The notes under the pieces: generated by a model
Seen by the model: the letters and a program-made list of their open reading frames with translations, nothing else
The model's database searches: none
Told to the model about the DNA's origin: nothing
IMG/VR virus record: IMGVR_UViG_643692022_000009
Reading direction: 5' to 3' (one strand)
Source of the DNA: a virus
Taxonomy: Duplodnaviria > Heunggongvirae > Uroviricota > Caudoviricetes
Length of the DNA stretch: 17,418 nucleotides
In this document: positions 1-5,234 of the stretch, one piece after another
Layout: every line of letters starts with the position of its first letter
Numbering within the stretch: the first letter of the stretch is position 1
Position numbers and translations under genes: made by a program

Positions 1-792
1 ATGCCAATAAATGGAGTCAGTGCTGCGATGCGCGAACGGGTATCGCAGCAATTAAAAGAAATAGAACGTCGCTATGGCGTGAAAGTGCTGTACGCCTGCG
101 AATCGGGGAGTCGCGGTTGGGGATTTGCCTCTCCCGACAGCGACTACGATGTACGATTTTTGTATGTTCACCCGCTGGAATGGTATCTGCGGGTGGAGGC
201 GCCGCGCGATGTTATTGAGTTGCCTATTGACGACGAGTTAGATGTTTCAGGCTGGGAGTGGCGCAAGGCGCTGGGATTACTGAAAGGAGCGAATCCGACG
301 CTGATAGAATGGCTGGATTCTCCGGTGGTCTATCAACAAGATGAAGAAACGATAACGCCGCTTAAGGCAATGGTGCCGAAGTGGTTTTCTCCGCTGCGTG
401 CGCGTTGGCATTATTATTCGATGGCGCGGAAAAACTTTCGCGGTTATTTGCAGGGCGACGTAGTTCGGCTGAAAAAATACTTTTACGTGCTGCGACCACT
501 ACTGGCTGTGCGTTGGGTTGAAGCGGGAAAAGGCGTACCGCCAATGCGCTTTGCCGAGTTACTGGCGGGAAGCGAGCTTGATGCACCGTTACGTGCAGAA
601 ATAGACGAACTGCTGGAACGTAAACAGCGCGCGGGAGAAGCGGAATATGGTCCGCGCCGTCCTTTGTTACATGCGTTTATTCGTGTGGAACTGGCGCGTG
701 GGGAAATTCCACCAGTGTTACCGGACAGCAGGGACGGAGATGCCAGGGAACTGGATGGGTTGTTGTATCAAACAGTGATACGCCGGGCGTGA
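1..792 (+). CDS. Pol-beta superfamily nucleotidyltransferase (263 aa); N-terminal NTase fold plus C-terminal helical domain. The ORF begins exactly at the window edge, so the true start may lie upstream.
   Basis: Translation contains the hG[GS]-x(9-13)-Dh[DE]h signature of Pol-beta-type nucleotidyltransferases: 'LYACESGSRGWGFASPDSDYDVRF'. Uninterrupted 263-codon ORF with typical enterobacterial GC content. Confidence 0.6.
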   Translation: MPINGVSAAMRERVSQQLKEIERRYGVKVLYACESGSRGWGFASPDSDYDVRFLYVHPLEWYLRVEAPRDVIELPIDDELDVSGWEWRKALGLLKGANPTLIEWLDSPVVYQQDEETITPLKAMVPKWFSPLRARWHYYSMARKNFRGYLQGDVVRLKKYFYVLRPLLAVRWVEAGKGVPPMRFAELLAGSELDAPLRAEIDELLERKQRAGEAEYGPRRPLLHAFIRVELARGEIPPVLPDSRDGDARELDGLLYQTVIRRA

Positions 793-821: not shown

Positions 822-1550
822 TTACCGAAGAGAATATTTGAGCTGTTTAAATTTGCTGCAGAGTGTGTTTTTTATGCTGAAACCTGGAACCCAGTGGAGA
901 GCTGTGTTCCAGGGACGAGGTGAACCGTGAAAACATACAATTTTTGCATCCGATGGCAATTCTCCGTTTGCTTTACCATCGTGTAAGTCAGGATTAAAGC
1001 CTATCATTTTAGGCGTCGCTATATTCGCTTTGTAACTGATAATTTGTCCTGGAAAAATATCCTGCCATCTTTCAGCGTCATGACATACTCTGCCGATAAA
1101 TCCCTGATCCCCATGATATGGCGGCTTTCTGGTTGAATTTATTTCAGTTTCAGGCGATCTCATAAACTCTTCCCAGACAAGTTTTTTGGCGTCCGCAGGA
1201 ATGAACATTATTCCAGTCGCAGGAGCAGCATTGGAACCATGCTGCGAGAAGTCGTTCAGTAATGTTACTTTTTTCATTTTAGTAAACTGTGTAATATCAC
1301 CGACGATTACAGTATCAATATCAATATAAAGTATATCTTCATTCCCGATAACAGGATGTTCGGGATTAAATAGCTCTAATTTTGCCCACCATCCTGGCCA
1401 ATTATACAGTAATGGAGTGGTTTGAACCCCTTTGATTTCTGAAGCATCCGTCATGCAAATGGAATTATACCCATCCAGCTGCTGGTGAAGCCATTGTGCA
1501 TGTTTAATAGTGAAATCCTTACTTTGTCTGAGAACTGAGACAATAAACAT
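822..1550 (-). CDS. GT8-family-like (GT-A fold) glycosyltransferase, 242 aa, encoded in an AT-rich block
   Basis: Translation has a DxD motif in GT8-like context ('ILYIDIDTVIVGDI') and a C-terminal 'CFHGSPRPW' resembling the H-x-x-G-x-x-KPW motif of GT8 enzymes (LgtC, WaaJ, glycogenin type). GC content is clearly lower than in the neighbouring tail genes. The ATG is preceded by AGGGA on the minus strand. Confidence 0.5.
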   Translation of the reverse strand: MFIVSVLRQSKDFTIKHAQWLHQQLDGYNSICMTDASEIKGVQTTPLLYNWPGWWAKLELFNPEHPVIGNEDILYIDIDTVIVGDITQFTKMKKVTLLNDFSQHGSNAAPATGIMFIPADAKKLVWEEFMRSPETEINSTRKPPYHGDQGFIGRVCHDAERWQDIFPGQIISYKANIATPKMIGFNPDLHDGKANGELPSDAKIVCFHGSPRPWNTALHWVPGFSIKNTLCSKFKQLKYSLR

Positions 1551-1730: not shown

Positions 1731-1758
1731 CTGATTAAAGCCGGGCTTGAAGCCCGGC
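1731..1758 (-). terminator. Candidate intrinsic terminator at the end of the tail operon (8-bp stem GCCGGGCT / AGCCCGGC, followed on the minus strand by UUUAAU)
   Basis: Perfect inverted repeat at 1740-1747 and 1751-1758, located 6 nt downstream of the stop of the 151-aa ORF (1764). The U-tract is short and interrupted. Confidence 0.35.
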
Positions 1759-1763
1759 GTAGT

Positions 1764-2219
1764 TTATGGTTGATATTGCCAACTGTTAACTAAAGCGTAC
1801 AAGTGGTTTGGGGAATAGCGCCAACTTTCTTTTAATTGCAGAAATTCGGCACAAAATTCGCTACAAAACAGGCGATCGCGCTGTTCTTTATTGCCGGTGA
1901 TAATTCCTAAGGCTCCACGCCAGTCGTATTTTTTGCCATCATGTTTACGGAAAAAAGCTTCTACATCCTGAAGGCTGACCTGGAGCGGCAGCATATCCCA
2001 CTTGTCTGGCGGTAAAGGCATTATCTTTCCACGAACGCCGCGATCGCGCAGAGAGGCGGAGTAACAAAGGTAACTCTTTTCTCCATGTGCTACGGCTAAT
2101 TCACAGTGGGAATAACTGCCGCGAGTGATTTTGCGTGTAAGCCAGTCAGCCAGTCTCGCAATAACCCGGTGCTCTGTTCGCCCTTTATAGCAAGCGAGCC
2201 AGACTGTAGTTTTACTCAT
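1764..2219 (-). CDS. Hypothetical 151-aa protein, translationally coupled to the tail-fibre assembly gene; possible permuted papain-like (LRAT / NlpC-P60-type) fold
   Basis: Its ATG overlaps the TGA of the upstream Tfa gene (ATGA, 2216-2219). Normal GC content. Contains 'YSHCELAVAHG' and a C-terminal 'FCSEFCAEF', reminiscent of the His...NCEHF arrangement of permuted NlpC/P60 enzymes. The fold assignment is from motif recall only. Confidence 0.6.
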   Translation of the reverse strand: MSKTTVWLACYKGRTEHRVIARLADWLTRKITRGSYSHCELAVAHGEKSYLCYSASLRDRGVRGKIMPLPPDKWDMLPLQVSLQDVEAFFRKHDGKKYDWRGALGIITGNKEQRDRLFCSEFCAEFLQLKESWRYSPNHLYALVNSWQYQP

Positions 2220-2923
2220 GGTTGCCAGCCTGTTGAATAATCGTAGTCGAGTACCGACTGAATATCGTCCAGAGCTTCCACCGCCGCGATATGGCGTTGG
2301 GCGTTGGCAAACAAGCGTATATCGTGATCCATTGTGACGGATTCAAACTGGGCAGCGATTTCGTTGGTTAACTCAGTCAGACCATTATTTTTAGTTTTCC
2401 ACATTAAACCTGGCGGAATTTTTTTCTCCGCTCCCATTTTTGTGAGTGAGAGTTGTTGGATGCGGCTGCTTGTATCACTGTGGAAGTAATTGTCGTTGAT
2501 GATGATGTAGTCGGTAGTGATGGAGTCGCGCAATGTTTTGATTTCGGCACATTTCGCCTGTTTAGCATCATCAATTGATGGCTGCCATTTTTCGCCATCC
2601 CAACGCTCAAAAGTACTGGTAGGGGAAATGATGGTGACAGTTTCAGGCAATTGACCCAATTTATTAATAATAATCTGGCTGCCATCAACTTTGTTATAAA
2701 CAGTTTGGCCTCGATGATCTTCAATAAGTTCCCATTTATTAATTGACCATATAGAAGTAAAACCTGCAATTTTTTGTGGTGGTGGTGTTAATGTGCAGTA
2801 ATTCGGTAGTCCAGTGTTTGGTGCTATATATACATTGGACTCACCAATAAATTCTTGTGTGTCTGGTGAAAAATTAAAAACAGATAAAATTTGTGCGTTA
2901 TCGGAAAAAGTAAAAGTATTCAT
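2216..2923 (-). CDS. Tail-fibre assembly protein (Tfa chaperone family), 235 aa
   Basis: N-terminal region ('[33 protein letters not shown]...[12 protein letters not shown]') matches the conserved N-domain of enterobacterial Tfa proteins. Its ATG overlaps the tail-fibre stop (ATGA, 2920-2923). The C-terminal half is divergent, as expected for a fibre-specific chaperone. Confidence 0.8.
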
Positions 2924-4500
2924 GCAAGCCTCACAATATAATTGAATGCAATGTTTTTAACAGTATTTTCTGTATTGCCAGTGTTATTGATGATAATTGA
3001 GTGATTATGTGTACCTAACACAATATTATGTGTATGACTTCCCAGTGCGATTGTATGTGCATGGGCGCCAATCGTAATACTATGATAATGACTACCAGCA
3101 GACTCAGTAGGTTCTCTGTAGTTCTCATCTGAATTGGGGCTGTTCCATAAAGACGGTCCATCTTTACCTTCTGCACCATCAGTTGGTATTCGGTGTGTAT
3201 GTTCTCCAGATGTGCTTGTATTTCTACTTCCATGATTAAATGAAGCTGTAGTTTTTGTTCCTAAGTCCGTAGAGGTAGATGTTATTGTCCCTAAATTGGT
3301 ACTAGAAATACTGCCCGTATGGTTATGTGATTTAACTCCATCCAGTTCAGTAGATAATATAGCGCGCCCACTGGATGGTTTTCCTTTAATTATCCATCCG
3401 CGCATATCAGGAATAACGCCAGATGGATATGCAATTGCCAGTTTGGGATAGGAGGTTTTATTAAATGTCTGACCAGTCATCAGAGCGTAGCCTGAAGGTA
3501 CAGAATCAGATGGCCAGGGTATAGGCATCCCTACAGGACAGCTTTCCGCAGCAATAGCCTTATCCATCGCTGCCTTAACCGCGTTCGGCGTTGCAGCTTC
3601 CGTCGTACTGGTGCTGTTGGTCGCATTATTAAGTTTCACGACCCCTTTTTGTGTCAGCGTACCGTCGGGGATACCTGTTATTTGCCCCCAGGCATGGGTA
3701 TGGCTGGACGGTGCCGCAGCAATAGCCTTGTCCATCGCTGCTTTAACAGCACTTGGCGTTGCAGCTTCCGTTGTACTGGTGCTATTTGTTGTGTTGTTAA
3801 GTTTAACGACTCCTTTCTGCGTCAGTGTACCATCAGGGATACCAGTAATCTGACTCCAGGCATGATTATGACTGGTGGCAGCTTTGCTATTTGCCAGGTC
3901 ATATGCCGTTTTTACCGCTTTTGGCGTGGCCGCTTTGGTTTCATCATCGCTATTAGTCGCATTACTCAGCTGCGTAAAACCTTTTTGTGTCAGCGTCGCA
4001 TCAGGATGATTTCGTGATTGCTGATGTGTTTTCAACGCGTCATCGACATATTCCCTGGTTGCCACAACGACTGAAGGGTCGATCAAAAGCGTCACCGCAT
4101 CTGCATTGGTGACTTCCATGACCGCGCGTATAACGATTTGCTTACTGGCCCCCGCAGGTAATCGTGGCTTATAGGTTTCAGGGATTTTTCCGATAGCGAC
4201 CAGCGTGCCGTCGGTATCCAGTAACCCAACTTCGCGTACATACCAGCCTCCGACTTGTTCGGGAATAATCGCTTCCGCGATAACCCAGGCCGGATTATCT
4301 GGCGCAATTTTTAACGTATTGAGCTGACCACGCCAGACCTCATGGACTACTTTAGTCTGACTTTCTGTCGGTTCGATATATTTACCATTACCGTCGCCAA
4401 CTACCATAGTTTGCAGACGGATCTGTTTTTGCTCCGTCAATGCAGAGGCAATTTTGGCTTTGCCTGCAGTAGTTAATATTGTAAAAAATTCACTTGCCAT
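2920..4500 (-). CDS. Tail fibre protein (P2 gpH / Mu S-like N-terminal anchor, central collar repeats, His-x-His C-terminal tip), 526 aa from the ATG at 4500
   Basis: From '[22 protein letters not shown]...VGDGNGK...HEVWRGQLN...[33 protein letters not shown]' the N-terminus closely parallels P2 gpH. GGAGGAATA lies just upstream of the ATG at 4498-4500, which overlaps the gpI stop (TAATG). The ORF track extends 42 codons further upstream to 4623, but that ATG lies inside gpI. The C-terminus carries HxH repeats. Confidence 0.85.
3548..4010. repeat. In-frame tandem coding repeats inside the tail-fibre gene: two near-identical 168-nt (56-aa) units plus a diverged third copy
   Basis: Units beginning 'gcagcaatagcct' at 3548 and 3716 (period 168 nt) encode 'HAW[S/G][44 protein letters not shown]'. 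A degenerate copy ('[37 protein letters not shown]') lies at about 3884-4010. These are the phage tail-fibre collar repeats. Confidence 0.85.
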
Positions 4501-5234
4501 TATTCCTCCGGATATACAGACATAATTTCGGTGCTCCAGTATCCTGTGCCGACCTTCATCGGTTGGGATTGTGTAAGGCGATCGGGTTGATAAGGTAGTA
4601 GTTGGATATATTCCTCCACACAATAACCCGTCGCTAAAAATATTCCTGATGACTGGCTGAGGCTTTCTGCAACAGGAGGCAATACTGTAATGACTTCCCC
4701 TCCTTGCATGGCGCTGCCAATAACTGGTATTGGGCTTCGATTAATAAGCCAAATAACAATGCTTTCCAGCTTTGAACGAACATTTTTATATTCATGAATT
4801 AATGTGATAAGTGCATTGAATTCATCTTCATTTAATCCTTTTTCCTCTAGTGTAATATTTACCTTAAAAAAATAAGCCCTTCCCCCATATTCAAACCATT
4901 CTGAAATAGTTCCGGGTAAGGAAAGTATTTCCAGCACCCGCCGTACCGCCCAAATTGTTCCTTTATATTTATGCAGTTCAATGGCTTGTTTAATTAACTC
5001 GCGCTTCTCCCGCTCATCGGTGGTAAATAACCAACCTTCCAGCCCCTGAACGTGAAATTGTTCTGCAAGGGCTGGTAATGCCGAAGCATCAACCAGGTCG
5101 ACCAGATAAACCATCAACGCCGTCAGATCGAGTTGGGCAAAACGCTCGGCGGCGATGTTTGCCAGAATCGAAAAACGCTCATCGCTGGCAAGCGGCGGCG
5201 GTGGCAGCAATTTATCCATCGCTGACTCCGGCAA
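4500..5234 (-). CDS. Baseplate / tail protein I (P2 gpI family)
   Basis: N-terminal '[13 protein letters not shown]' and overall pattern match gpI-family proteins; it sits between gpJ and the tail fibre as in P2 and R-pyocin clusters. The true start may be the internal Met (MDKLLPPP, 5219); both candidate starts overlap the gpJ 3' end. Confidence 0.8.

Follow-up and report, generated by a model that had tools for sequence, protein, structure and literature searches.

A predicted YiiX-like permuted papain-fold enzyme encoded in translational coupling with a phage tail-fibre chaperone

Introduction

Tail fibres and their chaperones decide the host range of phages, and both are engineered for therapy and in retargeted pyocins. 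The DNA analysed here, hereafter the window, is a stretch of 17,418 nucleotides from a virus of the Caudoviricetes (IMG/VR record IMGVR_UViG_643692022_000009), in which a tail-fibre assembly (Tfa) gene is followed by a gene for a protein of 151 amino acids (1764..2219, minus strand). What does this gene encode, and why should its translation be tied to that of a fibre chaperone? An earlier, sequence-only reading of the window had seen in the protein a His...Cys arrangement like that of permuted papain-like enzymes of the LRAT, NlpC/P60 or YiiX type, with a Cys/His metal-binding fold as the alternative. We report that the product has the predicted fold of a YiiX-like permuted papain, that it is encoded next to DUF4376-type chaperones in a wide range of phages, and that, to judge by synteny, it would work with the host-recognition module.

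Results

A real gene that closes the coupled fibre unit

The open reading frame (ORF) at 1764..2219 on the minus strand starts with ATG, and its translation contains the segments YSHCELAVAHG (residues 36-46) and FCSEFCAEF (residues 118-126). This ATG and the stop codon of the Tfa gene overlap by 4 nt in the sequence ATGA (2216..2219, minus strand; tcat on the plus strand), as had been noted before. The ORF had also been taken for the last gene of the fibre operon, which holds in part: an AT-rich spacer of 213 nt separates it from the next co-directional gene (822..1550, minus strand), and it therefore closes the translationally coupled fibre unit, yet the window has a further minus-strand gene beyond it. 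A GC-rich palindromic hairpin (1740..1758; 8-bp stem, -16.7 kcal/mol, z -2.9), terminator-like at the end of this unit, begins 6 nt past the stop codon. A promoter scan found no convincing promoter belonging to the gene itself, with two weak sites as against 6.4 expected by chance, and the GC content of the gene is that of the tail genes.

This is a real gene and not a chance ORF, because it has homologues (82 at E<=1e-3 in a 90%-clustered protein database), because its family profile recovers about 4,400 clusters (in a 50%-clustered library, 4,404 representatives at E<=1e-3, of which 1,945 reach E<=1e-10), and because the ratio of nonsynonymous to synonymous substitution (dN/dS) is low. Measured against the five closest relatives by the Nei-Gojobori method, dN/dS was 0.03-0.05 with dS of 0.7-0.8; the gene is under very strong purifying selection. 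The product is basic (isoelectric point 9.4), and no hydrophobic segment in it fits a signal peptide or a membrane anchor (maximum 19-residue hydropathy 0.34).

The predicted fold is that of a permuted papain

The protein was searched against the profiles of PHROGs, Pfam, NCBIfam and PADLOC. Pfam gave no match at E<=1 and NCBIfam none, and no Pfam or PHROG tail family was matched, in keeping with the earlier statement that this is no recognizable Tfa, fibre or baseplate protein. A profile search of PDB sequences returned only two matches, both of them solved permuted papain-like enzymes of the YaeF/YiiX type: BcPPNE of Bacillus cereus (3kw0) and YiiX of Escherichia coli (2if6). The E values were 4.4e-4 and 0.93, respectively, for a profile of 49 sequences, and 3.9e-4 and 3.2e-3 for a broader profile of 98 sequences. 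Three motifs of the window family fall in register with those of the solved enzymes, Y-S-H-C-E with F/Y-S-H-T-G, G-K-K-Y-D-W with G-K-P-Y-D-F, and F-C-S-E with Y/I-C-S-E. Comparison by hhalign with a 100-residue fragment of YiiX gave a probability of 88%, and a Foldseek search with the predicted model recovered 3kw0 at an E value of 5e-4. In the model, a papain-like alpha+beta core is superposable on YiiX and BcPPNE, and the order of the predicted elements is circularly permuted, with His38 opening a strand (38-45) and preceding Cys119, which opens a helix (119-126) near the C-terminus. Profile, hhalign and Foldseek results thus all point to YiiX and BcPPNE, and the sequence-only reading had named the fold class correctly; the remote-homology and structure searches it called for led to papain-like enzymes.

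The structural neighbours listed for the model, with their values, were TseH (7.1), Aichivirus 2A (7.0), PLAAT4 (6.3), MARTX RID (6.2), PPPDE (5.9) and CLN5 (4.8), while the viral structure models matched were uncharacterized phage proteins and one annotated C92 permuted papain-like amidase; the hits included an 821-aa BFVD entry termed 'cysteine peptidase'. Structural similarity was much lower to the LRAT/PLAAT (H-RAS-like suppressor) acyltransferase-phospholipases and to the H-box/NC proteins represented by picornavirus 2A, and the window protein has the motif FCSE rather than NCEHF and lacks the C-terminal membrane anchor of the LRAT/PLAAT group. The permuted NlpC/P60 toxins and acyltransferases (Vibrio cholerae TseH, Salmonella Tox-Act1, MARTX RID and Staphylococcus aureus LnsA) belong to the same superfamily branch, whose chemistry ranges over cell-envelope hydrolysis, phospholipase/acyltransferase activity, fatty-acylation of protein lysines and N-acylation of lipoproteins.

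YiiX and BcPPNE are members of YaeF/YiiX, MEROPS C92 and Pfam PF05708 (Peptidase_C92). The gathering threshold of PF05708 is 27 bits, and ten relatives of the window protein had no Pfam match at E<=0.1. Since no score reached this threshold, the window family is best described, on sequence comparison, as a phage-specific sister family of YiiX/YaeF that lies outside the Pfam model. It differs from YiiX and BcPPNE in size (151 aa here, as compared with solved chains of 180-214 aa), in having invariant residues of its own (Glu40, Ser56, Arg63 and Trp74) and in being encoded in phage tail-fibre modules. All 120 homologues listed from the profile search were single-domain proteins of 89-180 aa without a Pfam domain, and ten longer representatives gave insignificant Pfam matches only. 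One member of 254 aa (P0196) carries a C-terminal extension of ~115 residues with an HEHVH (HExxH-like) motif, the sole possible domain fusion seen.

The candidate catalytic residues are conserved

Conservation was counted in an alignment of 223 family members. The predicted catalytic base, His38 (codon CAC, 2106..2108, minus strand), is present in all 223 and aligns with His49 of BcPPNE; Tyr98 (codon TAC, 1926..1928, minus strand), likewise present in 223 of 223, aligns with Tyr115 of YiiX in GKPYDF; and the predicted nucleophile, Cys119 of the FCSE motif (codon TGT, 1863..1865, minus strand), is found in 222 and aligns with Cys154 of BcPPNE and Cys128 of YiiX. Conservation is comparably high at Trp74 (223/223), Glu40 (221/223), Arg63 (219/223) and Ser56 (218/223). 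In the broader alignment of 98 sequences, which includes members of the type found in phage V22, His38 is invariant and Cys119 is kept in at least 90%. The other cysteines are variable, with Cys39 in 79% (Val in 36 sequences), Cys52 in 76%, Cys123 in 66% and Cys10 in 4%.

The catalytic set of this branch comprises Cys154, His49 and Glu64 in BcPPNE, and Cys128 with the conserved Tyr115 in YiiX; the conserved tyrosine of NlpC/P60 enzymes, equivalent to Gln19 of papain, stabilizes the P1 residue (PMC3142127). The window protein is best described as a predicted catalytically competent Cys/His enzyme. The earlier reading had made it depend on conservation of the His and Cys residues among homologues, and this is what the counts for His38 and Cys119 give.

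The gene is a conserved partner of DUF4376-type chaperones

A survey of homologues after Tfa genes in other genomes, which had also been proposed, covered 160 loci encoding relatives, 80 on viral contigs and 80 in genomes; one of them (L009, IMG/VR contig IMGVR_UViG_2778261668_000003) is identical to the window. A co-directional ORF ends within reach of the enzyme start in 154 of the 160 loci. The two reading frames overlap in 129 of these (~84%), by 1-19 nt, most often by 4 nt (76 loci), followed by 8 nt (29), 11 nt (12) and 1 nt (8), start codons in the survey being heuristic and the exact overlap lengths approximate. The upstream ORFs are mostly of 176-261 aa. Among the 140 distinct upstream proteins, 110 match phrog_2837, 80 phrog_1807, 73 Pfam DUF4376 and 25 Caudo_TAP, so that, by these profile matches, 110 of the 140 are classed as DUF4376-type fibre chaperones. 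Downstream the picture is heterogeneous: the 125 distinct genes include 37 for DNA methyltransferases, 11 for tail sheath proteins, eight for nucleotidyltransferases, holin genes and many unknowns, mostly more than 30 nt away or convergent, and there is no conserved downstream partner among the close relatives. The idea that the gene belongs to a lysis cassette was rejected on this count.

The pairing of enzyme and DUF4376-type chaperone, with its translational coupling, is therefore conserved across genomes of the myo-, sipho- and possibly podovirus type, temperate and lytic alike. The same gene order is found in the Mu-like phage SuMu, in Pasteurella phage Pm86 and in Moraxella phage Mcat25; it is found in Pseudomonas phage pAN and in Acidovorax phage AP1, where Tfa, enzyme, holin and lysozyme genes follow one another; a P2-like contig has the enzyme gene in a slot flanked by the fibre genes and the sheath gene; and a lambda-like contig has it after J and two fibre-module genes. 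By way of exception, some copies directly follow a fibre or tailspike gene. Hosts named at the surveyed loci are Enterobacteriaceae, Pasteurellaceae, Neisseriaceae, Moraxellaceae and one Rhizobiales metagenome-assembled genome (MAG), to which phage records add Pseudomonas, Ralstonia and Acidovorax. A 6.7-kb contig of a 'Bacillota bacterium' MAG (L089, JAEZCC010000043.1) holds a copy of this enterobacterial gene at 95% identity, and is probably mis-binned rather than a Firmicutes occurrence.

A counterpart in the lytic phage V22

Alteromonas phage V22 is a lytic marine myovirus in which gp26 is the receptor-binding fibre and gp27 a DUF4376 chaperone that is needed for a functional fibre and co-purifies with it (PMC7289586, PMC10579305). 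Its ORF28 (QHZ59751.1, 'permuted papain-like amidase') starts on the last base of gp27, giving the same order of fibre, chaperone and enzyme genes as in the window. The motifs WSHC, YDW and FCYE of ORF28 are counterparts of those of the window family, and hhalign related the two at 96% probability (E 2e-9), at an identity of only ~15-18%. ORF28 is nearer to PF05708, which it matches below threshold (19.8 bits, E 9e-4); relatives of ORF28 carry precomputed PF05708 hits, and a DUF4376 gene again precedes one of these relatives. The authors who described V22 listed ORF28 merely as 'viral metabolism-related'. By sequence, ORF28 bridges the window family to C92, and it extends the chaperone-enzyme pair to lytic phages. 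In V22-like phages (L169, 10370-11199; L170/L172) a conserved small ORF and then a gene for a CheY-like response regulator come after the enzyme gene, whether or not a DUF4376 gene lies upstream.

Mosaicism and neighbouring genes in the window

The window is a myovirus tail module on the minus strand, with Pfam matches to sheath, tube, tape measure, gpU, gpD, V, W, J and I. The chaperone (2216..2923, minus strand; 235 aa) combines Caudo_TAP (E 5.7e-5) with a C-terminal DUF4376 domain (E 3.9e-13) and also matches tail-fibre-assembly PHROGs. When it is compared with relatives whose enzyme is 93-96% identical, identity falls to as little as 15-40% over the N-terminal three-fifths and is 87-96% over the C-terminal two-fifths, which implies a recombination joint inside the chaperone gene. 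By these comparisons, fibre tips and chaperone N-termini are swapped, while the enzyme gene and the conserved DUF4376 end of the chaperone are passed on together as a single block. It follows that the enzyme does not track the variable receptor-binding tip; whatever it acts on should be constant, be it the conserved domain of the chaperone or a conserved component of the host.

The tail fibre itself (2920..4623, minus strand) has, by Pfam, a Phage_tail_fib N-terminal domain, Phage_fiber_2 repeats and a Collar domain, with HxH-rich repeats at the C-terminus. As listed, its ORF begins with TTG, 41 codons upstream of the Phage_tail_fib domain; the true start is probably an ATG near 4500 (MASEFF...), which abuts the stop codon of gene I.

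On the other side of the enzyme gene, the ORF at 822..1550 (minus strand) encodes 242 aa, has a low GC content (35-43%) and matches phrog_1962 ('glycosyltransferase', moron category, E 9e-99) and no Pfam or NCBIfam model. Its product has a D-I-D-like motif. The gene appears to be cargo that was acquired separately, with an AT-rich upstream region of its own; it is missing in E. coli relatives, in which the gene for an RlaP-family nucleotidyltransferase stands immediately next to the enzyme gene. In the window the RlaP gene (PF10127, E 8.6e-96) occupies 1..792 on the plus strand, convergent with the tail operon. This family (phrog_14344) accounts for eight of the 125 distinct downstream genes, and in E. 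coli a slipin gene lies ahead of the RlaP gene, which could be phage cargo or else a gene conserved beside the insertion site.

Discussion

We favour, with moderate confidence, the view that the gene encodes a cytoplasmic permuted papain-like thiol enzyme of the NlpC/P60 type (a PPNE) that is part of the host-recognition module and acts on, or alongside, the fibre-chaperone complex. By analogy with this superfamily, Cys119, activated by His38, would attack an acyl carbonyl (amide or ester) to give a thioester acyl-enzyme, Tyr98 would stabilize the bound acyl or P1 group, and the intermediate would be resolved either by water, in a hydrolase, or by an acceptor, in an acyltransferase. Late in infection, translational coupling to the DUF4376-type chaperone would fix the proportion of enzyme to chaperone. 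Our best guess is that the enzyme would, for example, trim, release or acyl-modify the chaperone 'cap' or the fibre, rather than being the product of an unrelated cargo gene.

The substrate is named here tentatively, on the basis of synteny. The fibre or its chaperone is a plausible candidate that still has less than an even chance, and the host envelope is a somewhat less probable one. We rank the fibre-chaperone complex slightly ahead of the envelope, which is a close rival, because no neighbour of the enzyme gene other than the chaperone is conserved, and because the two remain together even where the lysis cassette lies elsewhere. A narrower proposal makes the enzyme a Cys/His acyl-hydrolase or acyltransferase dedicated to the maturation of receptor-binding proteins, one that would process the fibre-chaperone complex covalently, for example through removal or acylation of the DUF4376 'cap' or the fibre tip; this is rather unlikely. 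For proteolysis at the tip of the fibre, the intramolecular chaperone domains (Peptidase_S74) of the T5 fibre and the K1F tailspike offer a precedent in concept: DUF4376 chaperones resemble such domains, which are cleaved off after fibre folding (PMC10579305). That release is autocatalytic (Ser-Lys) and occurs in cis, whereas in the window phage the chaperone is one separate protein and the Cys/His enzyme another.

Several observations weigh against placing the enzyme with the fibre-chaperone complex, or against its chemistry as proposed. V22 fibres fold and bind cells when made from gp26 and gp27 alone (PMC7289586, PMC10579305), and the enzyme is therefore not needed for fibre folding; moreover, no counterpart of V22 ORF28 is listed in the compared homologous modules of phages A5 and P24. 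The gene also occurs away from the chaperone. Ralstonia jumbo phage RP12 has a solitary copy (L178, 3438-3881) whose neighbours all lie on the other strand and include no fibre or chaperone gene, so that the enzyme can evidently be kept without a chaperone partner; another copy (L008) lies in an accessory region, and two (L018/L091) directly follow the fibre gene with no chaperone neighbour. In several distant members the gene stands directly between fibre/chaperone genes and holin or endolysin genes (L175, 4501-5680; L180, 3264-4844; L006, 6001-7085; L173, 1399-2356; L176, 4501-5834), with GH19 as the neighbour in L006 and GH108 in L173, and in L175 the enzyme gene overlaps the holin start. 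The heuristic start codons of the survey, noted above, belong on the same side of the account. So does the position of the acidic third triad residue, Glu64 of BcPPNE, which falls on position 55 of the window family, where Ala (44 sequences) or Ser (179) is found. The near-invariant Ser56 on the neighbouring strand, or Glu40, may take its place; the third residue is dispensable in LRAT, and in PPPDE1 water is used instead (PMC3142127). Finally, YiiX was co-crystallized with a fatty acid and YiiX-type enzymes are thought to be lipid-directed (PMC3142127), and this lipid link, together with the adjacency to holin and endolysin genes, fits a target in the host envelope equally well.

Such an envelope target is the alternative that survives best, as a real though doubtful possibility. 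The protein would be a late-made acyl-hydrolase or acyltransferase directed at lipids, lipoproteins or peptidoglycan, which accumulates in the cytoplasm like canonical endolysins and acts on membrane lipids, on lipopolysaccharide or lipoprotein precursors, or on the wall, aiding release or stopping progeny fibres from re-binding to debris; its place after the chaperone would then merely be the end of a late operon. Besides the fatty acid in the YiiX pocket, LRAT/PLAAT proteins and Tox-Act1 are phospholipase/acyltransferases, several distant members (AP1, pAN, L006, L173, L175 and L176) have a holin or endolysin gene directly downstream, and every identified host of the subfamily belongs to the Proteobacteria. 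That the enzyme stays near-constant while fibre tips and chaperone N-termini are swapped is likewise what a conserved host substrate would lead one to expect. Nevertheless, the gene is still beside the chaperone, its sole conserved neighbour, in P2-like, Mu-like and V22-like genomes, which have their lysis cassette elsewhere. The lack of a signal peptide or membrane anchor also speaks against an envelope target, as do the conserved surface residues, which are mostly polar or charged (K12, R58, D59, R63, K65, D99 and E121) and not obviously lipophilic.

It is improbable that this is an unrelated cargo (moron) or anti-defence gene in an insertion slot after the fibre genes, encoding for instance a deconjugating peptidase that removes host-attached modifiers. 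The gene has no promoter of its own, shares the GC content of the tail genes and matches no PADLOC defence model at E<=0.1; its start overlaps the upstream stop in ~84% of loci, which is atypical of morons, and its linkage to one chaperone family holds across very divergent phages, one of them lytic.

Still less credit can be given to a non-enzymatic protein, whether the Cys/His metal-binding fold offered by the sequence-only reading as its alternative or a structural component of the virion. Several Cys and His residues are present in the window protein (C10, H17, H38, C39, H45, C52, C119 and C123), and the PDB title of 2if6 terms YiiX a 'metalloprotein'. However, a metal-cluster fold is unlikely because the cysteines other than Cys119 vary: instead of three or four invariant ligands there are only His38 and Cys119, and the invariant residues are those of the papain-like catalytic set. 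A structural role finds no fibre, baseplate or Tfa family match, and the protein goes unmentioned in the paper on the proteome of SuMu virions and in the 39 supplementary files that go with it, a weak point that is uninformative rather than negative.

The least credible identity is that of a metabolic enzyme of the enoyl-CoA hydratase/carnitine racemase type, a name borne by PHROG 1128 ('enoyl-CoA hydratase/carnithine racemase-like', E 6e-59), by Haemophilus phage SuMu gp51 (L002, 3944-4465) and by many Pasteurellaceae NCBI records, and it can be dismissed, there being no enoyl-CoA hydratase match in Pfam or NCBIfam, no crotonase among the listed structural neighbours and an unrelated predicted fold; the label is probably a propagated annotation error.

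In conclusion, the fold class was already known, and in the literature searched we found no account of this very large phage family without a Pfam model, nor of its wrong database name, nor of a coupled chaperone pair that spans morphotypes and lifestyles. Public databases name its members either hypothetical or 'enoyl-CoA hydratase', so that at the minimum a wrong annotation can be put right and the family given a new model. Should the enzyme act on the fibre and chaperone, or on the envelope that bears the receptor, it would supply a component that host-recognition modules have so far been missing, and leaving it out could affect the heterologous production of fibres. Covalent processing of the fibre-chaperone complex, if it takes place, would be an unrecognized enzymatic step in fibre assembly in thousands of phages of Proteobacteria. 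Action on either target would, moreover, provide the first biological handle on the YiiX/YaeF branch, the structures of which appeared in 2006-2011, and the fibre-module context offers a tractable way into the enzymology of that branch.
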